The position numbers and the translations under genes were made by a program. The notes beneath the pieces were generated by a model that did no database searches, was not told the DNA's origin, and worked only from the letters and a program-made list of their open reading frames with translations. DNA of 64,000 nt from a virus (Duplodnaviria > Caudoviricetes): positions 32,001 through 96,000 of IMG/VR virus record IMGVR_UViG_3300046779_001841. One strand, 5' to 3'. Positions 4,172 to 53,180 of this stretch are shown piece after piece. Positions within the stretch are counted from its first letter, which is position 1. The number at the start of each line of letters is the position of its first letter.

Positions 4172-4423
4172 TTATCCTTTCATAGATCTTTGAATGAGAT
4201 TACATTTCTTTTCTAAGTTCTTTGCCATTTCATATATATCATAGAGATCAGAATCTATTTGTTTCTTCAAAGAACGAATTGATGAATTTTCTACCAATTC
4301 TGTTTTGAGTTCTTTATCTCTTTCAATAATATTAGAACCTTGTTCTACCATAGCTTGAATTTTTTCTGCCATATCGGAAACTTTGGCATAGGTGTCCATT
4401 GGACTTGCAAATCGTCTAAACAT
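4172..4423 (-). CDS. Hypothetical helical protein
   Basis: ORF directly upstream of the endolysin. Begins MFRRFAS. Confidence 0.6.
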   Translation of the reverse strand: MFRRFASPMDTYAKVSDMAEKIQAMVEQGSNIIERDKELKTELVENSSIRSLKKQIDSDLYDIYEMAKNLEKKCNLIQRSMKG

Positions 4424-4493
4424 TTTTATATCTCTTTGTTAGATTTTATTAAAACATAGTAAAATATAAATGGATTATTAAAGAGAACAGAAC

Positions 4494-5807
4494 ATGATGA
4501 AAAATTTAGATAAAGACATTAAAGAAATCGCAACACTACTCGCAATATCTCATGGTTCAAACCATAAAAATATTGCTCTTTATAGAAACGATGAGATTTT
4601 TCTAAATCCATCTGCAAAGAGTACGATACTCGCTTGGAAATCTAATCCTATTCTTCAATATTTTCTTTTTCAAACTTGTGGTGAAGGTGATGGTTCAAAA
4701 ACTGCAGTCTTTATTTTAGCTAGTCTTATCCTATCTTATATCAAATGTCCTTTTGATAATTTGCCAGTGCATGACATAGATTTACCTGCAACATATCCAA
4801 ACAAAGATGATCTGAAAGTAATGACTAAAGAAGTGTTGAATGATGAATTGCCAGAAATCGTATATGACTTTTTACTTGGTGATAGTAATGCACATATCTC
4901 AATAGAAATAGGTGAGAATACAAGTTTTGAAGTTCTACATAGTGAAGCATTTATAACAAAGACTACATATAGTGGATATACAGAAGATAAGAATGTTAAA
5001 GGTGCAATGTTGGCTTTCTTTACTTATCCACTTTTAACAATAGATGATGTTAAAGATTGTTTAGAAAATCAAATTGAAGGACGACCTGTTATCATCATTG
5101 CACCTATAATATTAGGTGAAGCATTAAAGACAATAAATCTAAATCGCAACAAAGGTATTATTGAATGTTATGCAGTCGAGTGTCCAAAAATATTTGATCA
5201 AGGTGCATGGCTTGAAGATTTGGCATCTTTCACTGGTGGGAAAATTGTAACAAGACTAAAGAAATTTGATTACCAAGAAGATTTTGGATCTGCATTAGAA
5301 ATTTGTTTTAAAGAAAAAGAAATGCTTGTTGAACAATATGAAGATCATTTAGAGAATACAGTGAAAAGAATAGAGCAACTACAATATGAATTATCGCAAG
5401 AGAAAATCTTTTATAAAGCAGAGCAACTTCAACAAAGAATAAGTAATCTACAAGGCAGTTTATTAAGATTAAAGGTAGGTGGAATAACACAACTTGAAGC
5501 AAAACATAGGAGATCAATTTGTGAAAAGTTAATCATTTCATTAGTGCAGTCAGTAAGGTCTGGCATTTTACCAGATGGTTTGATTTTAAGTTTGGCAAGA
5601 ATAGAAACAGAAAATGAGATATTGAATAAAGCATTGAGATCGAGTTTAGAGATTGTGAAAAAGAATAGCAATATGAAAGTAGATGAAAGTAAATTGAAAA
5701 TACCATTTCCAAAAAGTAGAGCAATCGAAATAATCAATAATGCAGTTTCTATAGCTACTCTTTTAACAAGTGTAGAAAGAGTAGTGAATGGAAAGACTAA
5801 GATTTAA
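4494..5807 (+). CDS. groEL: Divergent GroEL/Cpn60-like chaperonin
   Basis: GEGDGSKTAVFILA (GDGTTTAT-like), CYAVECP...LEDLASFTGGKIV, QLQQRISNLQGSLLRLKVGGITQLEAK, NNAVSIATLLTSVE, all in GroEL order. Confidence 0.8.
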   Translation: MMKNLDKDIKEIATLLAISHGSNHKNIALYRNDEIFLNPSAKSTILAWKSNPILQYFLFQTCGEGDGSKTAVFILASLILSYIKCPFDNLPVHDIDLPATYPNKDDLKVMTKEVLNDELPEIVYDFLLGDSNAHISIEIGENTSFEVLHSEAFITKTTYSGYTEDKNVKGAMLAFFTYPLLTIDDVKDCLENQIEGRPVIIIAPIILGEALKTINLNRNKGIIECYAVECPKIFDQGAWLEDLASFTGGKIVTRLKKFDYQEDFGSALEICFKEKEMLVEQYEDHLENTVKRIEQLQYELSQEKIFYKAEQLQQRISNLQGSLLRLKVGGITQLEAKHRRSICEKLIISLVQSVRSGILPDGLILSLARIETENEILNKALRSSLEIVKKNSNMKVDESKLKIPFPKSRAIEIINNAVSIATLLTSVERVVNGKTKI

Positions 5808-7360: not shown

Positions 7361-7392
7361 TATAACACTTGTCATTAAGCTACCTTTGCAAC
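7361..7392 (-). promoter_or_regulatory. Class I promoter motif
   Basis: gttgcaaaggtagcttaatgacaagtgttata. Confidence 0.8.
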
Positions 7393-7450
7393 GAATGTAA
7401 AAAATTTTATAATCTTTTTATAAAGTATTGTTTTTAAAAAGGATTGAAAC

Positions 7451-7723
7451 ATGAAACACAAATTCAATAAGAAACAAAAAGAGTATCATCTAAAACGAGG
7501 TGAGTATTTATATATACCATGTAATTTATCAAACTACTTATCGGAATATAAGATAAGCAGTAATCGTTCTTTAGGTTGCATATATATAAAGATGAATGGT
7601 CGAATAGAAAAAGTGCAATGTGGTTTAGAGATAACATTAAAAAGAACAGATGATAAATTTGAGATTGTGTATAATATATTTACAGATGTAACAGAAGATG
7701 AAGTAAGATTTGATATAGAATAA
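7451..7723 (+). CDS. Hypothetical protein
   Basis: ORF with AAGGA RBS. Confidence 0.6.
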   Translation: MKHKFNKKQKEYHLKRGEYLYIPCNLSNYLSEYKISSNRSLGCIYIKMNGRIEKVQCGLEITLKRTDDKFEIVYNIFTDVTEDEVRFDIE

Positions 7724-7729
7724 TATAAG
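7721..7729 (+). promoter_or_regulatory. Class II upstream motif TAATATAAG
   Basis: About 35 nt before the macrodomain ATG. One of 9 exact copies located 29-43 nt upstream of starts. Confidence 0.55.
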
Positions 7730-7763
7730 ATAGGTAGTGTTTTTATTTTTAAAAGGAAAAACT

Positions 7764-8348
7764 ATGTATGAGATAACAAACAAGTCGATCTTTAATGCTG
7801 GAACTCAAGTGATTGTTAATGCAGTGAATACAGTTGGTGTAATGAGTGCAGGAATTGCATTAGAATTTAAATTAAGATACCCAGAAATGTATAAAGATTA
7901 TTATGATCGTTGTGCAAAGGGTCAAGTAGAACTTGGTAAAGTTTATCTGTATGAAAATATCTTAAATTTTCCAACCAAAGATCATTGGCGAACACCATCT
8001 AAAACAGAATGGATAGATCAAGGATTACATCATTTTGCCAGAAACTATAAAGCACTTGGTATCAAATCCATAGCATTTCCCAAATTAGGTTGTGGTCATG
8101 GTGGTTTAGATTGGGTTAAAATTCAAAAGATGATGATCCATTATTTTGAACCACTGCAAGATATAGATATTAAGATTTGTCTGGATAGTGCAGAACCAGA
8201 AGGTTTAGAAAAGAAGATGATTGATTATGTAGTGAGTAAAAATCCAACACTACAATTAGAAAGATTTAAAGATTTAAGATTCATTTTAAATGATCGCAAT
8301 GCTTACGAACAGATTTTTCAAAAAGCATATGAAAAGAGTATTATTTAA
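7764..8348 (+). CDS. Macrodomain ADP-ribose glycohydrolase, DarG/Poa1p-like
   Basis: IVNAVNTVGVMSAGIALEFKLRYPEMY...ILNFPTKDHWRTPS...SIAFPKLGCGHGGLDW. Confidence 0.85.
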   Translation: MYEITNKSIFNAGTQVIVNAVNTVGVMSAGIALEFKLRYPEMYKDYYDRCAKGQVELGKVYLYENILNFPTKDHWRTPSKTEWIDQGLHHFARNYKALGIKSIAFPKLGCGHGGLDWVKIQKMMIHYFEPLQDIDIKICLDSAEPEGLEKKMIDYVVSKNPTLQLERFKDLRFILNDRNAYEQIFQKAYEKSII

Positions 8349-8766
8349 TCCAAACATATTCCAAATTGGCTGGTGTTTCTTTAAATAAGTCTGCATAGTG
8401 TTCTGGTTTCTTTTGAATAAGTTTTGATCTATGGCTTAAATGAAATTCTTCATTGCCTAACCATGATGGCATATTTTTATTGTCAAAACTTTCCATTTTA
8501 GAAACAAAGAAATTCTTTAAATTATCTTTATAACCTCTTGCAATCCATTCATCACAAATCGCAATAGCATATAGACAAAGAGCATATTCATAACCATTCC
8601 ACATAAGAACAATAGGATGGTTGAACCAAGCACCAGTATTTTCAGTTTGTCTTTTAAGATTTGTTAAAAGAATTTGATATGCTTCAACTCTTTGTTTTCC
8701 AAGTCTTTGTCTATCAAGAGATTTAGCAGTAGCAGTAAAATCTGCATAAGGTAAAAAAGTTTGCAT
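8341..8766 (-). CDS. Pyrimidine-dimer DNA glycosylase/endonuclease V-like (MSMEG_6728 family)
   Basis: MQTFLPYADF...LDRQRLGKQRVEAYQIL...HPIVLMW...P.WLG.EEFHLSHRSKLIQK.P.HY. Confidence 0.85.
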   Translation of the reverse strand: MQTFLPYADFTATAKSLDRQRLGKQRVEAYQILLTNLKRQTENTGAWFNHPIVLMWNGYEYALCLYAIAICDEWIARGYKDNLKNFFVSKMESFDNKNMPSWLGNEEFHLSHRSKLIQKKPEHYADLFKETPANLEYVWIK

Positions 8767-8780
8767 AATATTTTCCTTTA

Positions 8781-9110
8781 TTAAGCATTAAACTTTGCAT
8801 AGGTATCTAATAAGTAGGTTCTCATTTCAGAGATTTGCCTAATATCAAACTCTTTACTATCTGATTTCTTATTAAAAAAGATTTCAAAATGTAGAATATG
8901 TGGTTTAACAAAAGAAAACATCACATATCCATTTTCACTGGCAATAAATTTTGCTCTAGCAAGATCTTGATTAAAAATTGGTGATTCTGCATCTGTGAGA
9001 ATATCACCTAATTTATCTTTGATAAAAGATAATAAGACAATAAATTTGCCATTGTATGTATACATAGCATCAAATTTGGCATTGATCTTTTTTATCTGGT
9101 TTTCATCCAT
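8781..9110 (-). CDS. Hypothetical early protein
   Basis: RBS present; downstream of a class I promoter. Confidence 0.65.
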   Translation of the reverse strand: MDENQIKKINAKFDAMYTYNGKFIVLLSFIKDKLGDILTDAESPIFNQDLARAKFIASENGYVMFSFVKPHILHFEIFFNKKSDSKEFDIRQISEMRTYLLDTYAKFNA

Positions 9111-9148
9111 TTGTGTTTTCCTTTTGGATTAGTCATTATTGACAATCA

Positions 9149-9180
9149 TATAACACTTCTCATTAAGCAACCTTTGCAAC
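9149..9180 (-). promoter_or_regulatory. Class I promoter motif followed by hairpin GTCA-ATAA-TGAC (9132-9143)
   Basis: gttgcaaaggttgcttaatgagaagtgttata. Confidence 0.8.
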
Positions 9181-9193
9181 ATAGGATAAAAAA

Positions 9194-9571
9194 ATGAAAT
9201 TCAAACATTGTTTAGAAATCATACTTTCAAATCTCAATCTGGATTATGTAATTTCTTTAGAAGCCAATCCTATTCCAAAAGATGAAGTCCAAGACTTAGA
9301 AAAATTTTATAAAGATGAGATAGATGAAGAAGAAACAATACCTACATATTTGGTTCTGTTTGAAGATATTCCAATTCAAATATATTGTACATCTCATGTA
9401 GATATGTTTAAAGATGATGAAGCAGAAGAAGGTCAAATTCCATATTTATTTCAAAACATTTATGAGATTAGTATATATGATTATAGCAATAATTTTATAG
9501 ATGGTATGATAAGTTATAGTATAGATGAGATTGAAACTTTAATAAAGAAAAGTGTAAGGACTGACAAATGA
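9194..9571 (+). CDS. Hypothetical acidic protein
   Basis: ORF with AGGA RBS. Confidence 0.65.
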   Translation: MKFKHCLEIILSNLNLDYVISLEANPIPKDEVQDLEKFYKDEIDEEETIPTYLVLFEDIPIQIYCTSHVDMFKDDEAEEGQIPYLFQNIYEISIYDYSNNFIDGMISYSIDEIETLIKKSVRTDK

Positions 9572-9939
9572 AAAAGAAAATCATTGAAGTAAATAATAAG
9601 AAAGAGATGGATGCTTGGACAACATATTCTTATGTAACAGAACCATCACATGAAATTAAATATTTAAAGGGTGTAGAAGACACAGTGTTTTTTCAAGGTA
9701 GTGGTGCAAGTAGGAGGAGAGTAGCACCTTATTATATACCACCACTTAAAAATACAGATCCAGAAGTTTTAAATTTGATAGATGAATATCATGCGAGTGT
9801 TTTTAAATTAGAAGAAGCATATAAAGAATGGGATCTGAAAAGAGTAGAGATGTTAGGCAAATTGCGAGTGATGTCTGGCATTTTACCAAAGCCATATGAA
9901 GATATAGCAGTGATGATGAAAGACATCACTAAATCTTAA
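9568..9939 (+). CDS. Hypothetical protein
   Basis: 4-nt overlap with the upstream ORF. Confidence 0.65.
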   Translation: MKKKIIEVNNKKEMDAWTTYSYVTEPSHEIKYLKGVEDTVFFQGSGASRRRVAPYYIPPLKNTDPEVLNLIDEYHASVFKLEEAYKEWDLKRVEMLGKLRVMSGILPKPYEDIAVMMKDITKS

Positions 9940-9951
9940 TAAATCATTTAT
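9939..9951. promoter_or_regulatory. Palindrome ATAAAT-S-ATTTAT (class III upstream motif)
   Basis: ataaatcatttat. Also at 13780, 14427 and 59642. Confidence 0.5.
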
Positions 9952-9984
9952 ACTTATAGTATTAAGGAATGTAATAATTTTCTA

Positions 9985-10062
9985 AACAAAAGGATCATTA
10001 AAATGATTAGTCAAAAATTAGCTTCTTTAGAAGCAAGAATCGCTAAGTTAGAGCAATCTAGT
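9985..10062 (+). repeat. Leader plus N-terminal-tag cassette, copy 1
   Basis: 78 bp identical to 10389-10466. Near-identical copies precede 12926, 13846 and 14492. Confidence 0.95.
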
Positions 10063-10380
10063 GTATCCACTAAAAAAGCATCTACTTCTTTAGATCTTCG
10101 ATCTATTATAGTTGCTCTTAAGAGTGTAACTAAAGGTAAAAACTGGAAATGGAAGATTCAAGGTAGTGATAAAATCACAGGATTTTATTTCGATGAGATG
10201 ATAGATGGTGCAGTATTTGTTGAGTTTAAAGATCAAGGTACAAAAACCTTAATCGTTCTTGATACAGGTGATTACGACCAACATACTGTGCTTGTAGATA
10301 CTGATGCTGATGTAATGGTTATTGCTAAAACAATTATTAAAGCTATTTACAACTATGATCTGTTGGGTAAATTCTTTTAA
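10003..10380 (+). CDS. Tagged protein (MISQKLASLEARIAKLE), unknown cargo; putative virion-internal protein
   Basis: Shared N-terminus followed by KKAS, then unique sequence. Confidence 0.8.
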   Translation: MISQKLASLEARIAKLEQSSVSTKKASTSLDLRSIIVALKSVTKGKNWKWKIQGSDKITGFYFDEMIDGAVFVEFKDQGTKTLIVLDTGDYDQHTVLVDTDADVMVIAKTIIKAIYNYDLLGKFF

Positions 10381-10388
10381 TAAGTCAT

Positions 10389-10466
10389 AACAAAAGGATC
10401 ATTAAAATGATTAGTCAAAAATTAGCTTCTTTAGAAGCAAGAATCGCTAAGTTAGAGCAATCTAGT
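10389..10466 (+). repeat. Leader plus N-terminal-tag cassette, copy 2
   Basis: 78 bp identical to 9985-10062. Confidence 0.95.
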
Positions 10467-10814
10467 TTAACCACTAAAAAAGCATCCGCTTTTAATATTC
10501 GTGAAGTTAAAGATTATGTGAAAAACCAAATCAAGAATTGGGGATTTAGTGTTTCACAACCTTCAAAAAATGAAATCTATGCTACAAATGAAGGTAGCAG
10601 AATCAGTGCAGGTATTCCAAAAGAATATTGGTCTTTTACCTTTACTCCAAAACAGGATGGCATTAAGATGGATTATGTAACTGAAGGTTTAAATGATTAC
10701 GATAATTCAAGTTATGATGAGAGTATTTTATTTGAATTTGACGATCCAGAAATTTCTGCTGATATTAATATGTATATTGGTGAATATATTGTTTTAAGAG
10801 TGACTAGATCCTAG
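10407..10814 (+). CDS. Tagged protein (MISQKLASLEARIAKLE), unknown cargo
   Basis: Shared N-terminus followed by KKAS, then unique sequence. Confidence 0.8.
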   Translation: MISQKLASLEARIAKLEQSSLTTKKASAFNIREVKDYVKNQIKNWGFSVSQPSKNEIYATNEGSRISAGIPKEYWSFTFTPKQDGIKMDYVTEGLNDYDNSSYDESILFEFDDPEISADINMYIGEYIVLRVTRS

Positions 10815-11790
10815 TATACTTATAAAACCATGTAAAAAATTCATGATATGCTTTCATATTTACAGATAGACCATCTATACTATCTTTTGTAATTAAGACA
10901 CCAGTACCTTCCATTACTTTCAAAAAAACATTTCGATATTCAATTTTATTGTCATTACTCATAAAAATGTTTTTAAGCCACCACTTATACATCTCTTTCA
11001 ATTCTTGTTCTTTCATTTCTACTGAAAGTGCATCAATATACTTATCAAATAAAGTAAAGTTGTAAGGTGCATAAGTTAAGACCTTGTTCTCATTGAAATA
11101 AGCAAAATCACATTTTCTTGCGAGTGTGAAAAGTGTTGGCAATTCGGATTTGAATTTTAAATCACCAGTCAAAAAGAGTTTAAAGTTTTCAGCTTTGTCT
11201 TTTAAGAAATTAAGTCCATCCAGATTATTGATAGAAACATTTAAAACTTTCTCTTGATAGTATGTAAAGATATATTTCTTATTGTCATAACCTTGTCTGT
11301 AATCATTGATCATAGATATTAAAGCAGTAAATGGATCTTGATCTATTTGAAAGACAAAGTACAGATATTTCTTGATCAATGGTATCAATTCTTGATATAG
11401 CTTACCTTCTTTTTTAAACATATCAGATGGTGCTTTACCCCAATCAATATCAACTTTCATGAGTAGATGTAAAAAAATGGTAGTTGGGAAAAGAACAAAA
11501 GTATTCTTCTCAACCAAAAGAACAAGATCTGGAATATGATCAAATCGTTTTAAATAGAAAAGAACTTGTTGTAGAACAGAAGCAATATTTTCTCTATTTA
11601 AGAGAGAGTAATCTGCTTTAGCTTCGATAAGAATTTTATAACCATCATCTAAAGTTAAAAGACCATCACATTGATGTGGTTTAGACCATTCACCACCAAG
11701 ATGGTGTCTTAATTCATTACGATAAACAGTTTCAATAAGAGATTCATTATTAGATGCAGATTCAATTTGTTTGATAAGTTGAGTGTTCAT
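10804..11790 (-). CDS. PD-(D/E)xK nuclease-domain protein (restriction-like N-terminus)
   Basis: QCDGLL...ILIEAK motif followed by LQQVLFYLKRF. Confidence 0.55.
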   Translation of the reverse strand: MNTQLIKQIESASNNESLIETVYRNELRHHLGGEWSKPHQCDGLLTLDDGYKILIEAKADYSLLNRENIASVLQQVLFYLKRFDHIPDLVLLVEKNTFVLFPTTIFLHLLMKVDIDWGKAPSDMFKKEGKLYQELIPLIKKYLYFVFQIDQDPFTALISMINDYRQGYDNKKYIFTYYQEKVLNVSINNLDGLNFLKDKAENFKLFLTGDLKFKSELPTLFTLARKCDFAYFNENKVLTYAPYNFTLFDKYIDALSVEMKEQELKEMYKWWLKNIFMSNDNKIEYRNVFLKVMEGTGVLITKDSIDGLSVNMKAYHEFFTWFYKYTRI

Positions 11791-11855
11791 TGGTTTCCTT
11801 ATGAAAGAGAATATCTTTCTTATATTATTTTATATACCAATGAACTTAATTTTTT

Positions 11856-12353
11856 TTATTCTTCATCATCAATCAAAGATGTTTGTTTGCCCTTTTTAGC
11901 TTTCTTTTCTTCATCTTTCTTCTTTTGATCTTCATCAAATAAAGCATAGACTTCAGATTTCCAATTACCATTGCGATCAATTTCTTCAGAAAAATAAGAA
12001 ACATCTGGTGTTCGCATACTATATGTCATTTCACCATTTTGATCATTTTCTTCAGCAACGATATGACAAAGTAAATGATCAATCAAAGAGATTTGATGTT
12101 TTTGATCTAAACTGCACCAAAGATCATAACCAATTTCAAGAATGAATTGATATTCTTTATCACCAAGAACAGTAAGAATACCAGGTGCTTTAATGATCTT
12201 GCCAAGATTATATTTGCCACCTGTTTTACCTGCTTTGTCTTTAAAGACAATTTGAATTTCGGAAAGAATATCTACTAATTTTGGATGACAGTTGCCAACC
12301 ACATATTCGACTACACTTTGATCTTCTTTTTCTGCTTTCCATTTATTTTGCAT
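11856..12353 (-). CDS. Phage metallopeptidase-like protein lacking the catalytic Glu (HLLCH)
   Basis: FILEIGYDLWCSLD..HQISLIDHLLCHI...PDVSYFSEEIDRNGNW resembles the putative phage metallopeptidase family (normally HELxH). Confidence 0.6.
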   Translation of the reverse strand: MQNKWKAEKEDQSVVEYVVGNCHPKLVDILSEIQIVFKDKAGKTGGKYNLGKIIKAPGILTVLGDKEYQFILEIGYDLWCSLDQKHQISLIDHLLCHIVAEENDQNGEMTYSMRTPDVSYFSEEIDRNGNWKSEVYALFDEDQKKKDEEKKAKKGKQTSLIDDEE

Positions 12354-12432
12354 AATGCACAATCCTTTTTTTAATTTGGAAAAGTATGAATGAACAATAC
12401 ACAATATCTTATAAGATCTTTAACAAGATTTA

Positions 12433-12798
12433 CTATCTAATTCTTCTTTTTGCATTTCTCATGATTTTATTTTGAATATATTGATCTACACTTTCTTGTT
12501 CTTCTTCTAATGCGCGATCACTCATATTTTGAATGAAGAATTTTTTGGTTTCTGCAATATCTTTTAGTGCTTTCTTTTTTCCCATATTATAATAGATTTG
12601 ATCATCTAAAACGAGTTTAGATGTAGAAACTAAAGCACTAAAGAAACGAAGTCTAAAGAATTGTGGAATTTGGCTTTTCATTTCATTAAAATAAGAGATA
12701 CCAATTTCATTCGCATCTTCAAATTGACCTGCGATAATAAGTTTCTCAATGTCATTTAAAGCACTGAGTATTTTTTTAAGTATGATACTTGTTTTCAT
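12433..12798 (-). CDS. Hypothetical helical protein
   Basis: AAGGA RBS before MKTSII. Confidence 0.6.
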   Translation of the reverse strand: MKTSIILKKILSALNDIEKLIIAGQFEDANEIGISYFNEMKSQIPQFFRLRFFSALVSTSKLVLDDQIYYNMGKKKALKDIAETKKFFIQNMSDRALEEEQESVDQYIQNKIMRNAKRRIR

Positions 12799-12925
12799 TT
12801 TTTTGTCCTTGTATCTTGAATGGAACACATACATAGAACAGAGATATAAATTTAATATTTATTAAATAGATAGATAGGTAGATAGATGAGTGTTTAATAT
12901 TTTTCTAAACAAAAGGATCATTAAA

Positions 12926-13429
12926 ATGATTAGTCAAAAATTAGCTTCTTTAGAAGCAAGAATCGTCAAGTTAGAACAATCTGGCAACAAACAAGCAAGT
13001 CAAACTCGAAATGCAGGTTGGACACCAGGTTCTGGTGCTATGCCAACAGCTAAAGATCTTTTTAAGAGTATTGGTTTATATTTAGACAAAAGACATAACA
13101 TTAGCTGGGAATTAAAACATGATAAGTCACAAGGTAATTCTGGCAATGGTATGATTGAAATCAAATTTGGTGAAGACTATTCTGTTGGTGATCCTGGTTA
13201 TACTGCAAGTGCAATATATGACTTTCGAGTAAGAACAGATTTGATGTCAGGTGAAACACAACTTATTTTTAATATTACACCAACAAAAGAATTTAGAGGA
13301 TTTGCTTCTAGTAAGACTTTTGTCCTTGATTTTTATCAAGGACAACCACAAAGAGAATGGGATATGCAAATCATTCAAATTACAGAATGGCTACAAAAAT
13401 TTCATGATAATTTAGAATCAAACTATTGA
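12926..13429 (+). CDS. Tagged protein (MISQKLASLEARIVKLE), unknown cargo
   Basis: Start at the cassette ATG. Tag followed by KQAS and RNAG. Confidence 0.8.
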   Translation: MISQKLASLEARIVKLEQSGNKQASQTRNAGWTPGSGAMPTAKDLFKSIGLYLDKRHNISWELKHDKSQGNSGNGMIEIKFGEDYSVGDPGYTASAIYDFRVRTDLMSGETQLIFNITPTKEFRGFASSKTFVLDFYQGQPQREWDMQIIQITEWLQKFHDNLESNY

Positions 13430-13761
13430 TATTTTTTAATCCATTCATGTTCTGTACCTAGACCACAACAATATTTACTATCTTCTATCGTCCATTGTGT
13501 TCTTGATTTTCCTCTTTTAGATTTAAGTGCTTTCTCAGCTTTCATTGCAGTTGAACGATCTGGATATGTTCCATATAATGCTTTTGGCACCCAAGGTCTA
13601 TATTTAGAGGTATAGGTGGCTCCACCATGTATCTCTCCATTATGTTGCCTTAATCTTCTTTCATAATCTGTAGTGCATCCTACATAATAAAAGCCTTCAA
13701 GTTCTTTACCTGTTTTACTATATCTCTTCTGTTGAGATTGAAGTACATATACATACCACAT
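13423..13761 (-). CDS. SLX1/UPF0213-like GIY-YIG nuclease
   Basis: WYVYVLQS...YYVGCTTDYERRLRQHNGEIHGGATYT..YRPW...AMKAEKALK. Confidence 0.85.
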   Translation of the reverse strand: MWYVYVLQSQQKRYSKTGKELEGFYYVGCTTDYERRLRQHNGEIHGGATYTSKYRPWVPKALYGTYPDRSTAMKAEKALKSKRGKSRTQWTIEDSKYCCGLGTEHEWIKKYQ

Positions 13762-13845
13762 AGTCCATATCCTTTGTGAATAAATGATTTATACTTATAT
13801 CATTTGTGTGAATGTTTAATAATTTTTCTAAAAAGGATCAATAAA

Positions 13846-14388
13846 ATGATTAGTCAAAAACTCGCTTCTTTAGAAGCAAGGATCGCTAAACTCGAAAGTA
13901 AAAAAGCAGGTGTTGGATTAAGACCTAAGTCACCATCTCAAATTAATTATGTAACACCAAATGTTGAAGATGTTGCACACATGATTCAACTTATTCTTGG
14001 CAATACTTTTCATCGTTTTATGTCTAAACAAAATAGTGGTAGTGGTCTAATAGTTATTATGGATAGTTCATTCTATAAAGATGAAGATTTTTTCTTTCAT
14101 CCAGAAGATACTATCGAACAACACAATAATGTCATAGCAAATATGACTGTTAATATTGTTCTTGAAGAAGGTGTGATGGATGATGAAATGTCTTACATTA
14201 GTCCTTATGGAGATGAAATGGATGATTATGCCTTAGAACTAAAACCTGTTACTACTTTTGCTACTATCACTTTTAAAGCCTTAGGTAAAGTTAAAACAGT
14301 TGAAGTTTCTTTTGGAATTGGAAGTACTTTAAAAAAAGTTCAAGCACAAATGAAACCACTTGTAGCTTTTTATAATTCATTTAGATAA
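13846..14388 (+). CDS. Tagged protein (MISQKLASLEARIAKLE), unknown cargo
   Basis: Tag followed by KKAG. Confidence 0.8.
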   Translation: MISQKLASLEARIAKLESKKAGVGLRPKSPSQINYVTPNVEDVAHMIQLILGNTFHRFMSKQNSGSGLIVIMDSSFYKDEDFFFHPEDTIEQHNNVIANMTVNIVLEEGVMDDEMSYISPYGDEMDDYALELKPVTTFATITFKALGKVKTVEVSFGIGSTLKKVQAQMKPLVAFYNSFR

Positions 14389-14491
14389 AAATCTCTATTG
14401 AAAAAGCTATTATCTTTTGTTTGTGAATAAATCATTTATACTTGATGATTTATATGAATGTTTAATAATTTTAATAAAAGGATAATCTAAA

Positions 14492-15016
14492 ATGATTAGT
14501 CAAAAAATCGCTTCTCTTGAAGACCGTCTTGCTAGATTAGATCGATCTAACTTAACAAACAAAAAATCTTCTTTTCGTGATAAGACTTCTTCAAGTTTTA
14601 CACCTCCAGATATTTACAATATTTGTCATATTGATTTTGATTTCTTAAAGAAAGAATTAGAAAAAACTTATTCAGATTATGACCTTACACTTTCTAAGCT
14701 AGAATCTAATTTTCCTGGACATTACGATGTTCTTTTTTTCCTAGAATATGGAAAACATGAATTTTTACAGGTTCTTATTTCTTTAAGAGTGGGAAAAGGT
14801 GATGAAAAAATTACTGTTGGTGTTGATCTAAAATTTGAACATGACGATCCAGATGCTCAATTCTCAGAAAGTACTGCGAAAGATTATAAATTAAAGGATA
14901 TAGATTCTACTATAAATCATAAAATAATTAAGTATGTAAAAGAAACATATACTGATAGTTTGAATCTTTTAAATTTCAAAATTGAACTCGCAGAAGAATA
15001 CCATCCTAAATATTGA
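14492..15016 (+). CDS. Tagged protein (MISQKIASLEDRLARLD), unknown cargo
   Basis: Variant tag followed by KKSS. Confidence 0.8.
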   Translation: MISQKIASLEDRLARLDRSNLTNKKSSFRDKTSSSFTPPDIYNICHIDFDFLKKELEKTYSDYDLTLSKLESNFPGHYDVLFFLEYGKHEFLQVLISLRVGKGDEKITVGVDLKFEHDDPDAQFSESTAKDYKLKDIDSTINHKIIKYVKETYTDSLNLLNFKIELAEEYHPKY

Positions 15017-15064
15017 TTTTATAATCATCTCTATTAAAAAATCTATATATCATTGGAGATGATT

Positions 15065-16852
15065 ATGAAACCTACTTTATCAGAATTTATTGATTCAGCT
15101 AAAGAATCACTACTTGCTATTATTGAACAATCTAAAAGATTAAAGAAAACTTTCAACACTGAAAGAACTTTTGTTGCAGAATTGAAAACAAAAGCAAATT
15201 TTAAGAAATTTATGAAAGACTATGCAGGTAAAAAAAACCTAGAAACTAGAATCAATCCACTATCATATATTGTTAGAGATGCTTTATTTGACCCAACTTA
15301 TGATTTAAATGCTAAACTTATTGATTTGGAATCTTTCCTAAGAATGTCTTATAAAGAAACTTATCCAGAAGATACAAAAGCAGAAAGAGAAAGAGAAAAA
15401 AGAAGTAAAGCATTTGAAAAAGATGTTCGTGGAACACAAAAAGCAGAAACACAAGCTAAGAAAGATTATGTTGCGATCTTTACTACAATGAACTCTGTAT
15501 TACAAACAGATTTTACACAATCAAATGGTAACAGTCGAGTATTTACAAGTAAATTGAAAGCCTATGGTCAAAGTTCAAATAATGCTATTGGCAAATTCAT
15601 TGAAACATATTTTGCAGGTAGTGATAATGCAGAAAGCAGGATTAACACTTTTATCTATGCAATAAGAGATAACTACTTTCCATCCACATCACCAGATGCA
15701 CCTAAAAATCCAAGAGCAATGTTTGATAAAAAACTTGCAGGTATTGTTAAGTCATCACATAAAAATAGAGTGTTAAATGAAGAAAGAGAAGCACTAGAAT
15801 CTGTTATTCCAGAATCCTTTTTGCAATATTTACCAAGTACTTTAATCGTTGAAGTAGATAAGAACAGTAAAATCACAAAGATCCGATCTAAATTTGCAGA
15901 AAGAATTAATGACATTGGTGCAAAAATTGAAAGACAAAAAGATTTACTCAAGAACTTAACTAAACTTGAATTGAAAATCAAAAAAGATCTTAAAAGCACT
16001 GATCATGATACTAAGATGAAAGCACTTATTATCTATTTAATGCTAGATACTGGTATTCGACCTGGTGCAGAACAAAATAAGATTAGAAATCCTGATTTTG
16101 AAGTCGATGCTCTTACAGATGAAGATGATGAAGATGAATATGATGAATTTTTAGAAACTTATGGTGCGACCACTCTTAATAAACAACATATTCTTTTTGT
16201 TAGAGAGAATTTTATATCTTTAAAGTTTAGAGGTAAAAAAGGTACAATCAATTTGGCAGATATAAGTGATGCAACTTTAGTTAAAGCCATTAAAGATCTT
16301 GTAGAGAAAACACGAAATGTGGAAAGAAGTAATTATCTTTTCTTAGATAGTGCAGGTCAAATTTTTGACCAACCAAAAATCACTGCATATTTAAGAGCAA
16401 TTATTCCTGGTCTTAATTTAACAGATTTTAGAAAATTGAAATCATCAAGAGTTCTTTTAGATGCTTTAAGAGAGAAACAAGAAATTCTTTTACAAAAGAT
16501 TTATGATTTGAACCAACAACAAGTAGAAGATTTAAAAGAACAAGTCATTTCTTTAATTGAAGAAGTTGTTGAAGAATCTTTTGAACAATCTATGGTTGCA
16601 TTAAGTCATCAGAATATGAACACTACTATTAAATCTTATATCAATCCACAAGTCTTACTTAATTTCTTATCCACTGGTAAAGTAGCAGATAAACTTGAAG
16701 ATATTGTTTTAAATCAACAAAATTTGAAATTTGACCCACAAGTCTTTATTACATCTGCAATAGCTTATGGTAGTGCTATTGGTGAATTGACACAAGGTGC
16801 ATCAACAACAAGGACTGCATCTTTAAGAGAATTGTTTAGAATGATAGCTTAA
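15065..16852 (+). CDS. DNA topoisomerase IB (bacterial/poxvirus-like) with a long N-terminal extension
   Basis: Catalytic residues in order: TGIRPG (R), FRGKKG (K), DFRK (R), LSH (H), KSYINP (Y). Confidence 0.8.
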   Translation: MKPTLSEFIDSAKESLLAIIEQSKRLKKTFNTERTFVAELKTKANFKKFMKDYAGKKNLETRINPLSYIVRDALFDPTYDLNAKLIDLESFLRMSYKETYPEDTKAEREREKRSKAFEKDVRGTQKAETQAKKDYVAIFTTMNSVLQTDFTQSNGNSRVFTSKLKAYGQSSNNAIGKFIETYFAGSDNAESRINTFIYAIRDNYFPSTSPDAPKNPRAMFDKKLAGIVKSSHKNRVLNEEREALESVIPESFLQYLPSTLIVEVDKNSKITKIRSKFAERINDIGAKIERQKDLLKNLTKLELKIKKDLKSTDHDTKMKALIIYLMLDTGIRPGAEQNKIRNPDFEVDALTDEDDEDEYDEFLETYGATTLNKQHILFVRENFISLKFRGKKGTINLADISDATLVKAIKDLVEKTRNVERSNYLFLDSAGQIFDQPKITAYLRAIIPGLNLTDFRKLKSSRVLLDALREKQEILLQKIYDLNQQQVEDLKEQVISLIEEVVEESFEQSMVALSHQNMNTTIKSYINPQVLLNFLSTGKVADKLEDIVLNQQNLKFDPQVFITSAIAYGSAIGELTQGASTTRTASLRELFRMIA

Positions 16853-16924
16853 TAAAATTTTTGTAAAAATAAAAAAGAAAACTTATAAGCATAAGTGCAT
16901 TCTCACAACAAAAGGAAAAATGAA

Positions 16925-17500
16925 ATGCACTCATTAATCAAAATCAAAAAAGATCGTGTGTCTTTAGATGTTACTGGCAAGACATTGACATTAGGATTTA
17001 ATTCTTTTCGTATTGGTGTTAATATGAATATTCCATCATCATTGGATATTATTGATAACAATATTTGTGTGTCTTTTGAAAATCAAACATATTCGTTCGC
17101 TGGTTTAAATTTAAAAGAGATTGAGATCAGTCCAACACCTGTTAAACAAGAACCACCTAAAATTGTAAAAAAACAAAAGCCTACTCTCAATGCAAAAAGA
17201 TATTGTTTAGATGTTGAAAGATTACATCCTTTGACTGCATCTGTATTACTCGCTTGTTCAAAAGAAAACTTATCAAGAACTGAAATTTTTCAAAAAATCT
17301 TAGATAAGAAGAATTATGAGAAATTTCTAAATTTGGAAAAGTATCGTAGAAGTTATGATTACTATCGTCCACTACTTTGGGCTTTGGAAAAAGAAGGTAT
17401 GTTAGCTTGTGATTATACTGCTGGCAGACAAGCGAAGCAACATCGTTTTGCGACTACACAAAAAGGTATGGATTTTCTTCTTCAAATTAGATCAAAATAA
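16925..17500 (+). CDS. Hypothetical protein, possible C-terminal winged helix
   Basis: RBS before MHSLIK. C-terminal LWALEKEGML...HRFATTQKG is typical of a wHTH wing. Confidence 0.55.
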   Translation: MHSLIKIKKDRVSLDVTGKTLTLGFNSFRIGVNMNIPSSLDIIDNNICVSFENQTYSFAGLNLKEIEISPTPVKQEPPKIVKKQKPTLNAKRYCLDVERLHPLTASVLLACSKENLSRTEIFQKILDKKNYEKFLNLEKYRRSYDYYRPLLWALEKEGMLACDYTAGRQAKQHRFATTQKGMDFLLQIRSK

Positions 17501-17511
17501 ATTTCATAATC

Positions 17512-17543
17512 GTTGCAAAGATTGCTAATCCATAAGTGTTATA
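17512..17543 (+). promoter_or_regulatory. Class I promoter motif followed by hairpin GTCA-ATAA-TGAC (17549-17560)
   Basis: gttgcaaagattgctaatccataagtgttata. Confidence 0.8.
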
Positions 17544-17582
17544 TGTATGTCAATAATGACTAACACTTAAAGGATTTGAAAA

Positions 17583-18125
17583 ATGAATATTCAAGATTTC
17601 AAAAATAATGCTAATGCTCTTCTCATGGTAACAAGTGATGATTGGTCTAAAAATTTTATCCAATCTTTACTTGATCAAGTAAATGCAGGTAGGACTTTAA
17701 GTGAAAAACAATTAAATCTCTTTAACAAGAAGTTGGATAATATGTTAAATCCACCAGAACCTGTAGAAGTAGATCAAGAGTTCTTAAAGCAAATAAATCT
17801 CTTGAAAACAAAAACAAAGTCTGCATGGCTTTTAGGTTTTTGTGATTCAATCACTACTCAACTTAAAGGTGGTAAAACATTAAGTGGAAAACAAATGGAT
17901 ATTTTTAAAGCTAAATATGACAAATTGGTTTTAAAGATTAAACCACCAAAAGAAATCCAATCTCTTGAAGAAGAAAGAAGAAATGATAGTGGTTGGAATG
18001 TATCCATTTCCACTGAATGGAATCATAGTTGGATTTGTGAAAGAGAAGATAGTGGTTGGGGTGGTGAGAGAGAAGATTCTGGTTGGGAAGGTGATGGTTG
18101 GGGTGGTAGTGATGGTGAATGGTAA
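17583..18125 (+). CDS. Early protein with a duplicated W..F..S......G.TLS.KQ domain and a DSGW-repeat tail
   Basis: Two internal repeats plus an acidic Gly/Trp C-terminus. Confidence 0.75.
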   Translation: MNIQDFKNNANALLMVTSDDWSKNFIQSLLDQVNAGRTLSEKQLNLFNKKLDNMLNPPEPVEVDQEFLKQINLLKTKTKSAWLLGFCDSITTQLKGGKTLSGKQMDIFKAKYDKLVLKIKPPKEIQSLEEERRNDSGWNVSISTEWNHSWICEREDSGWGGEREDSGWEGDGWGGSDGEW

Positions 18126-18158
18126 AAACAAAACACTTTCAAAACAAAGGAAAAACAA

Positions 18159-19529: not shown

Positions 19530-19904
19530 TTATCCAATAAAACTTTCCCAAGTATCTACAATATCTTCTAAAAATTTTTTAGCAACATCTAGCTTAATTT
19601 CTGTTGTTTTACTTGCTTTAAAATTATGATTTAGATCTTTAGTTTTACCTTCTGCATTCTTAAAGATAACTTTAATAACACCATCACGATGTTTTTTCAT
19701 AGAAATAACAGCAGAACCTGAACCATCTTTAGCAATAATTTCATAATCTCTTTCTGCTTTAATATCATAGTTTTTTTTAGGAAACTTAGTAGGTAGAAAT
19801 TCATCAAAAAATTCAATATAGTCTTCATATTCTTCTTTTGCAATACGAAGTGTTTGAATTTTTGCAAGACGGGCTTCAAGAGATGCGAGTTTACGATTAA
19901 ACAT
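19530..19904 (-). CDS. Tagged protein (MFNRKLASLEARLAKI), unknown cargo
   Basis: Divergent version of the tag, followed by RIAK. Confidence 0.75.
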   Translation of the reverse strand: MFNRKLASLEARLAKIQTLRIAKEEYEDYIEFFDEFLPTKFPKKNYDIKAERDYEIIAKDGSGSAVISMKKHRDGVIKVIFKNAEGKTKDLNHNFKASKTTEIKLDVAKKFLEDIVDTWESFIG

Positions 19905-19959
19905 TTTTTATGTCCTATTAAAGAGTTTGTTTATTAAGAAGAAAAAAATTAAATAAATA

Positions 19960-27500: not shown

Positions 27501-29570
27501 AGTTATTTGACCACCATCAATAGTGCCTGATCCTGTATTAATATTTACATTACCACCATTACCACTAATAAGAGAATTGCCTGTAGTTAAAGAAAAAGCA
27601 CCACCATTAGCAGTATCGGGTCCTGCAACATTTGTACTTGCATTACCTGTGTTAAGAGTAATAGCACCACCATTACTATTGGCTTGATCGGAATTACTAT
27701 CACCTGCAGTAAGAGTGATAGCACCGCCAAGTCTAGCACCATTCATAGTAACAGTATTACCAGAAGCACCAGCAGTAATATCAATATTACCTGCATTACC
27801 ATCATTATCAGCATTAGGTGTTGTTATAACAACACTACCTACAATAGCACCAGCTATTGCACCTATTTCACCTGATGAAATATATACAGAACCGCTAGTA
27901 TTTCCTGCACCACTTCCATAACCGCCTTCAATAGTTACACTACCACCATCAGAATTAGTTCCAGTACCACCATGAATAGTTACACTACCACCACTTGTAT
28001 TACCTGTACCAGCAGTAAGACTAAAATCACCACCTTGACCATTACCACCATCGCCTAAAACAATAGTCATATCACCACCATTGCCATTATCAATACTTTG
28101 TCCTGTAGTAATAGTTAAAGCACCACCATCACCAAGAAGACCAACACCAAGAACAATATCTAAATTACCACCATGTCCTAGATCTGAACTTTGTCCTGTG
28201 GTGATACTAATACCACCTGCATCACCTTCAAGTGCATCACCAGTGATAATATCTAAATTACCACCATGTCCAAGACTAGAACTTTGACCTGTGGTTAAGC
28301 TAAAACCACCACCATTTCCTGCACTCGCCAAACCTGTTTGGATAACTAGATTACCACCATCACCTGTAGCATTGCTATTACCTGTATTGAGAGTGAAACC
28401 ACCACCATTTCCATTGTCACCTAAACCAAGACTAATAGTCATATTACCACCATGACCATTATCAATACTTTGTCCTGTAGTGATACTAATATCACCACCA
28501 TTACCACTAGTGCCACCACCTGTTTGAATAGTGAATAGACCACCATTACCTGTAGTGGTAGAATCACCAGTGGTTAAAGTCATAGAACCACCATTATCTA
28601 TTCCACCATTACCTGTTGTAAGGTCTAAATTACCACCTGCATTGTCACTATTTGTAGTTAAAGAAAGATCATTTACATTAGCTACAAAATAAGAATCACC
28701 TTTAGAAGCGATCAAAGTCCAATCAGCATTTTCAAAGGGAGGTGAATTATTATTAGCACCTACTGCATACCAAGTTTGTCCTTGATATGTAACAATATCA
28801 CCAGTTACATAATTATCTACATTTGACCAAGCACCTTGAAAATACCATACAGCATCAGCACCATTAGTACCATCTGCACCTACAACATGACCCACATTCG
28901 TTGGATTGAGTGGGTCATTAGAAAATTCAATAAGAAGGTCACCATTAAGATCAATAGTTGCAGATAAAATAGAAATACCATCAGCACCTGGTAAACCATC
29001 AGCACCAGTCGCACCATCCATACCAGGTAGACCATCAGCACCAGGCGCACCATCAGCACCTTGTAGACCATCTTGACCTTTAGCAACAATCAAAGTCCAA
29101 TCAGCACTTTCAGCAGGTGTTGAATTTGTACTTGTTTGTAATGCTAACCATGATGAACCATCATAAACAACAACATCATTTGCAACATATTCAGTAGCAC
29201 CATTCCAAGTGCCTTGATGTGTCCAAGTTGCTTCAGTAACATAAGTAGTAGTTGCAATTTGAGATACTTGAATAGCATCAGCAAGAACAACCCAGTCAGT
29301 ACCATTAGAAATGATATTGACTGTACCATAATCTTTATTGATTGTGTAATAAGTGGTTTGTTGATCTAAAGACTGAACAAGAATACCATTGGTAAAAGCA
29401 CCATTAAGTTTAATTGTATATGTTCTACCTGTTGCAGTAGTTGGATCGGGTAATAAAACAGATTGATTATCTTGTGCAAGATAAATCTCATCTGTAGCAG
29501 TTAAAATATAAGTGTTTGTATTTTCAGATACTTTCACATTATTGACATTGACATCTATTAAATATGACAT
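24519..29570 (-). CDS. Large tail fibre/adhesin (1683 aa) with CBM-like repeats, collagen and Gly-rich solenoid
   Basis: Two W....Y...DVV.Y.G..W modules, (Gly-X-Y)11, GG.I.(L/I)TTG repeats and a C-terminal beta-sandwich. Confidence 0.85.
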   Translation of the reverse strand: MSYLIDVNVNNVKVSENTNTYILTATDEIYLAQDNQSVLLPDPTTATGRTYTIKLNGAFTNGILVQSLDQQTTYYTINKDYGTVNIISNGTDWVVLADAIQVSQIATTTYVTEATWTHQGTWNGATEYVANDVVVYDGSSWLALQTSTNSTPAESADWTLIVAKGQDGLQGADGAPGADGLPGMDGATGADGLPGADGISILSATIDLNGDLLIEFSNDPLNPTNVGHVVGADGTNGADAVWYFQGAWSNVDNYVTGDIVTYQGQTWYAVGANNNSPPFENADWTLIASKGDSYFVANVNDLSLTTNSDNAGGNLDLTTGNGGIDNGGSMTLTTGDSTTTGNGGLFTIQTGGGTSGNGGDISITTGQSIDNGHGGNMTISLGLGDNGNGGGFTLNTGNSNATGDGGNLVIQTGLASAGNGGGFSLTTGQSSSLGHGGNLDIITGDALEGDAGGISITTGQSSDLGHGGNLDIVLGVGLLGDGGALTITTGQSIDNGNGGDMTIVLGDGGNGQGGDFSLTAGTGNTSGGSVTIHGGTGTNSDGGSVTIEGGYGSGAGNTSGSVYISSGEIGAIAGAIVGSVVITTPNADNDGNAGNIDITAGASGNTVTMNGARLGGAITLTAGDSNSDQANSNGGAITLNTGNASTNVAGPDTANGGAFSLTTGNSLISGNGGNVNINTGSGTIDGGQITFTLGQGGTGDGGSIVFDMGSSNGGLGGSFDATAGTSTNGDGGAINLTAGASVNSAGGGINLLAGTSTNGTDGGTVDITAGVGNTGTGGNVNINAGSTYTGNGGSIGIQTGSAMTAGNGGNLTLQTGTGFGAGNNAGNIILNPGDAGNDAGAGYVEVQGYFNVTESLSVPVISMTDNQASALDFKVYNDSYLNFVTTDNAEKIVASQKVEVLSDLSVIGGTLAFNVKDADLNTVFTIDSNNGDTTISGDLTVTGSLIVNGSTTTINTVNLNVTDSLIQLADGTTGAPTNDAGFIIARGDENNASLFWNEANDKFVFATATSLNSDFSGNILTAGGTITYSAVRLGSLEANSIGGIGASTLSVTGNLIGNADTSSAWLTAMTLNLGGDLTGSVAFNGSSAVTLNATLGTITNAQLQYDSIHIGTSDFALGGTLALSNDFALDGGTLVLGGTLSVYSAGAIALAKTINLAGAITGTIDLNNQTSAVTLNTTLGTVSNASLEYDSVNIDGYSLALGGTLNVAGDSYITLGVTGSTLSASLGTIANAKLQYDSVSIGGSYDLALGGTLALSNLAITGSTLGLATTISLVDNQSSALDITEGSNSYLKFITTNSSEKVLFSKTLKTIDDIVVQDKADLVVQTLYLYVKYNATSQTDNEYFYVFSSSDGGATREVVPLTNLDHLQEDTSLGFKRYIANQASAYANTLPGTPNASFIIDPSKTYYFIIRTDSDDTTPNKDFQAYVSTSNAHNGFTYNDVLPYGGGFSSDGEDNKYTLLVDSTSWAYTATDAPVTIYNRVSDPVSSMTTFSIDNVTGNTTIKGDTTIQTDSSLLINKATSASDPLIILNSDTTSTGHQDAVISVERGSGTDAQLKWDNTNTLWSADNATGTARPLVLASPIDTSITTSTPVTLTGNAKGEFEKIYLVANSNTAIVINLFDINSDYNGYKVIIKKIDDGTGTITIHPNSTHSNTIEGSTDDLTISTAFGSVTLVANGIGWWVL
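27050..28625 (-). repeat. Gly-rich 13-15-aa coding repeats (GG-x-hydrophobic-x-hydrophobic-TTG)
   Basis: Dozens of copies visible in the translation; boundaries approximate. Confidence 0.85.
28977..29078 (-). repeat. Collagen-like (Gly-X-Y)11 repeat
   Basis: GQDGLQGADGAPGADGLPGMDGATGADGLPGADG. Confidence 0.95.
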
Positions 29571-53092: not shown

Positions 53093-53129
53093 TTGATTTT
53101 CCTTTGTGTTAAGTCGCTATCGACATAAC

Positions 53130-53161
53130 TATAACACTTGTGGTAGTGCAGTCTTTGCAAT
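53130..53161 (-). promoter_or_regulatory. Class I promoter motif followed by hairpin GTCG-ATAG-CGAC (53113-53124)
   Basis: attgcaaagactgcactaccacaagtgttata. Confidence 0.75.
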
Positions 53162-53180
53162 CAAAATTTTTTTTTATTTA

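Follow-up and report, generated by a model that had tools for sequence, protein, structure and literature searches.

A family of small genes that open with a common 5' module, comprising a leader, a ribosome-binding site (RBS) and an N-terminal peptide tag, and that continue into dissimilar cargo sequences, is described here from a 64,000-nucleotide stretch of tailed-virus DNA (Duplodnaviria; Caudoviricetes), the whole of which is referred to as the window. The window represents bases 32001-96000 of a 316,221-bp IMG/VR virus record (IMGVR_UViG_3300046779_001841; 29% G+C) that is rated complete, and the public runs containing the stretch are nearly all freshwater metagenomes. A motif scan and a profile search revealed ten open reading frames (ORFs) of the genome that begin with the tag M-I-S-Q-K-L-A-S-L-E-A-R-I-A-K-L-E, seven of them (c1 to c7) in the window. 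Comparison of sequences between related phages indicates that these tagged genes are gained, lost and exchanged at their common start and that the shuffling is real. On balance it seems probable that the members form a multigene family in which the common module plays two parts jointly, the tag serving in docking or targeting and the cassette DNA as a patch for recombination.

The repeated cassette and the exchange of tagged genes

According to the first-pass annotation of this region, leader, RBS and tag form a nucleotide-identical cassette that appears to be grafted onto new ORFs, and the coordinates given for the repeats proved exact. Positions 9985-10062, at the start of c1 (10003-10380, plus strand, 125 residues), are identical over 78 nt to positions 10389-10466 at the start of c2 (10407-10814, plus strand, 135 residues), after which a 4-nt patch (GTAT versus TTAA) is followed by 16 identical bases, and positions 9978-10042 are identical over 65 nt to 12901-12965 at the start of c3 (12926-13429, plus strand, 167 residues), compared with longest repeats of 15-21 nt in five shuffled versions of the window. 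Each exact repeat takes in the last 18-25 bases of the leader including the RBS AAAAGGATCA, the ATG and the first 13-29 codons. The leader pattern (G/T)ATGTTTAATAAT ... AAAAGGAT(C/A)A.TAAA-ATG does recur, as had been stated, ahead of c4 (13846-14388, plus strand, 180 residues) and c5 (14492-15016, plus strand, 174 residues). The c1 leader (9940-10002), of which 9978-10002 fall within the 65-nt repeat with c3, consists of a TTTATACTTA box, a (G)ATGTAATAAT box and the AAAAGGATCA RBS, and the same architecture of TTTATACTTA box, spacer of 12-14 nt, (G/T)ATGTTTAATAAT and RBS is found before c4 (leader 13776-13845) and c5 (leader 14423-14491), with weaker forms in c3 (leader 12884-12925) and c7. 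The short leader of c2 (10381-10406), directly 3' of the c1 stop codon, has the RBS only, without promoter-like boxes; all of these leaders are on the plus strand.

The conserved boxes TTTATACTTA and TGTTTAATAAT look promoter-like by eye and are predicted only. When up to two mismatches were allowed, GAATGTTTAATAAT had 24 sites in the genome against 27-32 in shuffles, all of its best matches being located ahead of tagged genes. Since the best matches precede tagged genes only and the looser ones are no commoner than in shuffles, the boxes are, as far as sequence can tell, no general promoter of the phage. A consensus promoter scan returned 27 sites against 34 in shuffles, with matches of only 9/12 near c4 and c5. 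No terminator-like hairpin was found on the plus strand before c1, c3, c4 or c5, and in the related locus L028 such a hairpin precedes the second tagged gene. AT-rich dyads were also noted in two leaders, at 13783-13806 and 14430-14452, around a TTTATACTT box; their arms (AAATGAT/ATCATTT in c4 versus AAATCAT/ATGATTT in c5) show a compensatory-looking G/C swap, other copies have other registers, and no claim is made for them.

The identity had further been said to cover synonymous sites, and this is the case for c1, c2 and c3, in which 18/18 and 16/17 codons are the same (P about 1e-6 and 5e-5 relative to genome codon usage), but not for c4, c5 and the other copies, in which codon agreement is near the level expected by chance from codon usage. 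The first 88 nt of c2 are 96% identical to c1 with no similarity beyond, and in c1, c2 and c3 the exact 78- and 65-nt cassettes stop abruptly at cargos without detectable similarity to one another. An old duplication followed by divergence under constraint at the amino acid level would thus fit most copies, c1, c2 and c3 alone being identical as DNA. The leader DNA of distant relatives differs while the tag peptide is unchanged, and neighbouring copies with common leader and tag DNA occur in the relatives L024 (genes at 10001 and 11232, and at 13561, 14026 and 14604) and L025 (genes at 9617 and 10001).

These relatives were found through a protein collection by way of the adjacent topoisomerase IB and the tagged proteins. 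There was no nucleotide match for the genome among 50,697 deposited phage genomes, blastn and tblastn searches of the 50,697 phage records gave nothing or chance matches only (E of 5), the topoisomerase used as a query against viral contigs recovered no relative, and c2 as a single-protein query returned just c1 and c2. A back-translated tag pattern was also run against viral contigs, and its matches, which lay in DNA of 45-64% GC, were set aside as genes for unrelated coiled-coil or holin-like proteins. The public runs were examined as contigs, in which rare forms are dropped, and the parts of the window that had no contig cover in runs X3 to X6 are located at the repeats, where unitigs break, and were not used.

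The content of one slot could be compared between several of these relatives. It lies between a small GIY-YIG nuclease gene (13423-13761, minus strand, 112 residues), which forms its left edge and has tagged genes on either side, and the leader of the topoisomerase IB gene (15007-15064, plus strand), which forms a constant right edge at which the homology of L018, L026 and L027 resumes (15007-15009). In the window the slot holds c4 and c5. L026 and L027, the flanks of which are 99% identical to the window, hold a single c4-like gene (80% nucleotide identity) and no c5, and L018, with a topoisomerase 77% identical, likewise lacks c5 and holds one tagged gene with a cargo unlike that of c4 or c5. 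L022 has the GIY-YIG flank followed by an orthologue of c1 (88% nucleotide identity) with no topoisomerase nearby, and a contig from run X3 has position 13798 joined to 14448, c4 being gone and a hybrid leader standing before c5. In L028 a c4-like gene and another tagged gene are found downstream of the topoisomerase. L018 is homologous to the window across the GIY-YIG gene and the leader as far as 52 nt into the tag, and again from 15009 onwards. In both L018 and L022 the slot homology ends 43-52 nt past the ATG, i.e. inside the cassette, and in L022 it continues as homology to c1, with the switch within the cassette. Because orthologous cargos keep 58-83% protein identity at such divergence, the unalike cargos found in one slot are regarded as replacements. 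Repeat identity cannot have produced the X3 joint as a k-31 assembly artefact, because around the start codon the longest stretch over which the c4 and c5 leaders agree exactly does not exceed 19 nt. Thus cargo order is not fixed, and cargo gain, loss and swapping are seen across relatives, with several breakpoints inside the cassette, much as the first-pass annotation had anticipated. Another X3 contig follows the c5 leader to 14487, 5 nt before the ATG, and then passes into unlike sequence with the start ATGAAATACAAT..., which may represent a tagless leader before another ORF, or another phage.

Two further comparisons bear on the movement of cassette DNA. The c3 gene and its L026 copy are 98.8% identical, with 7 differences in 608 positions, of which three (12941, 12943 and 12958) fall within 18 nt of the tag; in each of these cases the base in the window is that of the c1/c2 allele. 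By virtue of these clustered c1/c2 alleles in the c3 tag (12941-12958), the 65-nt identity of c1 and c3 is interpreted as a recent conversion tract. Between the c1 module and its counterpart in L022 there is 88% identity and a synonymous divergence (dS) of 0.2, as against 67-77% identity for the other matching segments of the L022 contig and a dS of 0.71 for its LamG gene; by this measure the c1 module has moved laterally between related phages.

The tag peptide and its cargos

A profile of the first 32 residues, searched against 1.84 billion representative proteins, gave 50 matches, nearly all from residue 1 and in proteins of 92-202 residues, and a word-indexed search of 5.8 billion clusters gave 94, nearly all in proteins of 87-261 residues. 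ASLE begins at residue 7 in 90 of 102 sequences, and in a set of 100 sequences A7, S8, L9, E10 and R12 are invariant and K5, A11, A14, R15, L16 and E17 are present at 90% or more. Hydrophobic residues at positions 2, 6, 9, 13, 16 and 20 describe a heptad pattern with E at the e and R at the g positions, after which comes a basic patch (K/R-K/R-A/T-A/S) at residues 22-25. AlphaFold models of c3 and c1 place a helix at residues 2-22, followed by a disordered linker and then the cargo; in c1 the tag is assigned to residues 1-17 and the linker extends to about residue 28. A search of PDB sequences with the tag profile had as its best match a T5 fibre tail at an E of 0.37, some tagged proteins have weak Pfam matches to trimerising coiled coils, and prediction of a c1 homotrimer (score 0.14 against a mark of 0.42) gave no answer and was used neither for nor against self-association. 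The ratio of nonsynonymous to synonymous divergence (dN/dS) of the tag between orthologues is 0.07-0.3, and in most pairs of paralogues the codons of identical residues agree no more than codon usage predicts. Judged from these sequence comparisons, the peptide is the unit conserved in the long term, held by purifying selection on the amino acid sequence. A curiosity was encountered in L019, in which positions 4399-5044 are identical over 646 nt to L018 positions 9356-10001 save for three substitutions in the tag (CAAAAAATCG versus CATTAAATCT) that make a stop at codon 5, reflecting either an assembly error at a repeat or a knocked-out copy.

The cargos are altogether more diverse. When 106 tagged proteins were stripped of their first 26 residues they fell into 46 BLASTP clusters, and hhalign comparison among 21 of the cargo clusters gave no link above 19% probability. 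Searches of the tagged proteins against Pfam produced a match to the parvulin-type Rotamase_2 in three and to DUF4116 in one, and PHROGs recognised nothing useful. The c3 model has a helix, a five-stranded sheet and a long C-terminal helix, and the low-confidence AlphaFold2 model of c1 has, after the tag helix and linker, a helix, strands and a helix in the same order. The nearest solved folds to the c3 model are FP domains, capping protein, PRELI, Nqo15 and frataxin, generic helix-sheet-helix neighbours at Z 7-9, a range that is called common; for the ESM Atlas model of c5 the fold neighbours are of the same kinds as for c3, and the c2 model has one neighbour cluster in common with c5. Because the c2, c3 and c5 models point to a common fold, the cargos look like diverged paralogues rather than foreign ORFs, and on the models the window cargos are probably very diverged paralogues of one helix-sheet-helix fold. 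No untagged homologue of any cargo was found in the genome or in the eight fetched loci, so that the earlier suggestion that recombination at the cassette equips any captured ORF was not borne out. Cargo dN/dS between orthologues was 0.52 for c1, 1.18 for c4 against L026 and 0.85 for c4 against L028, compared with 0.15-0.28 in nine of ten neighbouring genes and 0.61 in the remaining one by the same measure, and by this measure the cargos are under relaxed or diversifying selection. One database protein, P0141 (258 residues), has the tag and two tandem cargo domains, of which the second is related to the cargo of P0087 and follows an internal K-S-K-T-A-S linker; two tagged genes seem to have fused here, with loss of the second tag.

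Beyond c1 to c5, the window carries two further tagged genes: c6, a minus-strand gene of 124 residues (ORF 19530-19904; 19530-19958 with its leader) located behind the tail-fibre operon, and c7, a plus-strand gene of 135 residues (ORF 53232-53639; 53188-53639 with its leader). The three tagged ORFs outside the window are at genome positions 27702-28367 (minus strand), 151262 and 152536, and on a relative contig of 29.6 kb, for which the gene table only was available, three tagged genes adjoin a sheath gene. Seven more small ORFs of the genome have apparently diverged tags, those with RLASLRK..RLASLRKSS beside the sheath gene and those with SSLQARLA near 7-9 kb. A second tag type (MYSQR/MFTQRQR..RLASLRK.RLASLRKSS) begins four small minus-strand ORFs (L007:64-2592; genome 149825-152353) that lie intermingled with c8 and c9 immediately upstream of the tail-sheath operon, the sheath gene itself lying at genome positions 142277-147502, and from its sequence it looks like a diverged sister of the KLASLEARIAKLE tag, without the Glu. 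A third variant is represented by three ORFs outside the window that open MYFSKRSSLQARLAMINNQ or MFNRKLSSLQTRLAKLK (G000:C1:7185-8865), two of which have about 27 identical N-terminal residues. A block comprising a macrodomain gene, a pyrimidine-dimer glycosylase gene and a 109-residue ORF (7447-9125 versus L018:177-2307) is inverted relative to the topoisomerase, and about 5 kb of different genes lie between it and the slot in the window and in L018 alike.

The role of the module and competing explanations

In the mechanism proposed, each copy provides a promoter-like leader, a strong RBS and 17-25 codons of amphipathic heptad helix together with a disordered linker, behind which stands a hypervariable cargo of about 100-150 residues. 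At the level of the peptide, the tag would dock the cargos to one partner, preferably the assembling virion by analogy with the capsid-targeting sequence (CTS) of T4, and the fast-evolving cargos would be host-interaction or anti-defence factors. At the level of DNA, for which the comparisons speak directly, all copies begin alike, so that the cassette presumably serves the homologous recombination of the phage as a portable patch of homology, the outcomes being conversion between c1, c2 and c3, insertion, deletion or replacement of tag-plus-cargo modules at fixed slots, and lateral transfer of modules between related phages. Indels at microhomology and homing-type exchange driven by GIY-YIG genes would add further turnover.

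By analogy with known systems, the tag most likely acts as a signal for docking or targeting, by which diverse small proteins are brought to one common partner, and targeting to the virion in the manner of the T4 CTS is the preferred reading. Several observations give it weak encouragement. Copies adjoin tail-fibre and tail-sheath genes, both here and in relatives. About a fifth of the ORFs of the genome are nearly CG-free, and 16 of 17 tagged or tag-like genes, with observed/expected (o/e) CpG values of 0.22-0.88 (0.59 in c7), fall outside this CG-free early class, c8 having a value of 0.09. The x-E site of giant-phage prohead proteases has S and G variants, and the invariant S-L-E of the tag fits such A/S/G-x-E sites. 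The motif described for cleavage by giant-phage prohead proteases is AXE (PMC10052503), and the internal proteins of T-even phages are described as highly diverse defence proteins that have only the conserved CTS in common (PMC3012670).

A number of points weigh on the other side. Packaging into the virion is argued from analogy, the genome has no match to prohead proteases of the gp21 type (PF03420) or the HK97 type (PF04586), and the one ClpP-family gene matching head-maturation-protease PHROGs (48092-48712, minus strand), a possible processing enzyme and a candidate only, is located among replication genes. A search of 97 tagged proteins against Pfam and PHROGs matched no internal-protein family. 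Tag variants of the genome (RLASLRK...) are without Glu, and c7 stands about 100 nt behind an early-class promoter element, TTGACA..TATAACACTT..CTTTGCAAC (family D11; 53111-53639). With regard to the DNA, the X3 joint is supported by a single contig of depth 2.9 with one side of only 43 nt, and the right edge of the slot, at about 15007, has no cassette. The expectation that breakpoints would lie at the cassette held for L018, L022 and the X3 joint but not for c6, which is missing with its leader from one X3 contig and is bounded by a 7-nt direct repeat, ATTAAAC, i.e. microhomology, nor for the L026 swap, which ends within the GIY-YIG gene. The structure models are weak, with predicted local distance difference test (pLDDT) scores of 56-64.

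It might be supposed that the genes are ordinary tandemly duplicated paralogues, the N-terminal helix being structural or serving oligomerisation, the identical stretches marking the youngest duplications and the cassette having no role in recombination. Most pairs do stand at chance synonymous identity, as old duplicates would, and the common structural neighbours and helix-sheet-helix order of the c2, c3 and c5 cargos, together with the failure to find untagged cargo homologues, point the same way. Such a history is nevertheless judged improbable, since exact identity of 65-78 nt that ends abruptly at unalike cargos is impossible from a young whole-gene duplication, one slot has five different contents in relatives, there is a conversion tract in the c3 tag, and c1 resembles its L022 copy far more than the remainder of that contig resembles the genome. 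A comparably small chance is given to the proposition that GIY-YIG homing-type genes are the main drivers of the turnover of the locus, by cleavage, repair and co-conversion of flanks, and that the tagged genes are merely carried along within a hyperplastic region. In the window the slot is bordered by the small GIY-YIG gene, which L018 and L022 also keep beside it, and in L024 a tagged gene is preceded by another gene of this kind. In L026 (729-1871) a plus-strand ORF of 380 residues with a C-terminal GIY-YIG domain, lying between the 99%-identical flanks, replaces most of the small gene (13491-13686) and leaves about 75 nt of its 5' end as a relic, and this replacement, which coincides with the swap of c4 for the 80% version and the loss of c5, looks from the sequence like a homing-type exchange, i.e. 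a homing-endonuclease replacement. Untagged genes of the region are also subject to indels: a gene of 180 residues at 17583-18125, with a paralogue at genome positions 156737-157159, is cleanly absent from contigs of four runs, in which 17578 is joined to 18157 (X3 and X6) or 17550 to 18142 (X4 and X5). However, arrays vary without a nearby GIY-YIG gene at the sheath-side slot, at c6 and in L025 and L028, the genome holds two GIY-YIG genes only against ten or more tagged genes, and in both L018 and L022 the switch falls within the cassette. It would appear from the whole of these comparisons that the cassette is one of several recombination substrates in a hyperplastic region. Two other apparent joints, 7404 to 17512 and 7372 to 13843, were rejected as repeat artefacts, their sides being only 26-33 nt long and lying inside another repeated promoter element.

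The peptide is open to alternative explanations of its own. The tag may be no packaging signal but either a coiled-coil peg on the exterior of the virion (fibres, sheath or baseplate) or a ClpXP adaptor or degron acting with SspB-like and ClpP-like proteins, and this deserves rather more credence than the two foregoing proposals, unlikely as it still appears. The heptad hydrophobics with E at e and R at g, the weak matches to trimerising coiled coils and the position of copies beside giant fibre and sheath genes are what a peg would lead one to expect, the high cargo dN/dS is also compatible with receptor binding, and the genome does encode one ClpP-like protein and two weak SspB-like matches. 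Set against these are the invariant A7 and S8, which occupy b and c positions and are odd for a plain self-associating coil, the finding of the tag on no large fibre-like protein of the genome, and the fact that the SspB matches lie below the curated cut-off. Very improbable indeed is the remaining suggestion, that the nucleic acid is what is selected, as a translational operator or a site for a nuclease or regulator, and the peptide is a by-product. It draws on the local co-inheritance of leader and tag and on a palindrome with a 5-bp stem, GCTTC-TTTA-GAAGC, that encodes A-S-L-E-A in c1 to c4 (10021-10034, 10425-10438, 12944-12957 and 13861-13880). The amino acids dictate four of the five palindrome pairs, though, and the stem is broken, with the peptide kept, in copies that use GCA or GCG for Ala or AGT for Ser, so that it is the palindrome that is probably a by-product of the peptide. 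A purely nucleic acid function is moreover unlikely because the dN/dS of the tag is low, synonymous sites are near random between distant copies, and in distant relatives the peptide persists without conservation of the leaders. On the minus strand the palindrome scores as terminator-like, owing to the T run after it.

Relation to known systems and significance

The nearest parallel for the DNA is the promoter-early stem-loop (PeSL) of T4-type phages (Arbiol, Comeau, Kutateladze, Adamia, Krisch 2010, PMC2839356; Comeau et al. 2014, PMC4122927). As there, a short repeated 5' regulatory unit stands before ORFan genes in hyperplastic regions, and indels and replacements between close relatives break in the repeated unit and leave chimeric copies of it where the segments join. 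The unit described here differs in reaching 17-29 codons into the ORF, so that it carries a protein tag, and in having no G+C-rich stem-loop terminator before the window copies, and it belongs to an unrelated, freshwater jumbo phage. For the peptide the parallel is the CTS that, in the account of Mullaney and Black 1996 as cited in PMC10052503 and in the review PMC3012670, is present on the T4 internal proteins IPI, IPII, IPIII and Alt. In both cases a short peptide occupies the exact N-terminus of small, dissimilar proteins that turn over fast in variable loci, and a Glu-ended motif, here S-L-E at residues 8-10, is found at about the distance of the T4 cleavage site from the N-terminus. Unlike the CTS, the tag has 17-25 residues forming a heptad helix and linker and occurs in 10-17 copies per genome, and there is no internal-protein match in Pfam or PHROGs, no detected protease of the gp21 family and no homology to the CTS itself. 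On sequence grounds, then, the DNA behaviour works like the T4 PeSL, and the distribution of the peptide is CTS-like without homology to the CTS.

Two more distant comparisons are instructive. Ejection or inner-body proteins of giant phages, such as gp245 of SPN3US, have N-terminal propeptides with an AXE motif (PMC10052503, PMC5694885), and the removal of N-terminal propeptides from head-internal proteins of jumbo phages after x-E motifs recalls the situation here; these propeptides, however, are not one common portable sequence, the proteins are larger and no homology was found. Integron cassettes resemble the tagged genes in that single-gene modules stand in an array, enter and leave it at a recurrent sequence and are expressed in their new context, but here integrase and attC are both lacking, the repeated element is located 5' and is partly coding, and exchange is presumably by general homologous recombination. 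It has tentatively been considered that the tag is a universal virion-loading signal in a freshwater jumbo phage lineage, with integrase-free, integron-like exchange of >45 families of injected anti-defence effectors for which the slots would be landing pads, but so comprehensive a scheme is thought doubtful.

Should the tag be a loading or docking signal, 3-5% of the genes in these uncultured jumbo phages would constitute one functional class, a ready list of dozens of fast-evolving candidate host-interaction proteins would be to hand, and a short peptide would be available with which foreign proteins could be sent to the same destination. Irrespective of the role of the tag, the locus offers a clear example from nature of a coding 5' module that is at once an expression signal, a protein tag and a substrate for recombination, and the PeSL idea of modular shuffling is thereby extended beyond the T4-type phages and into coding sequence.

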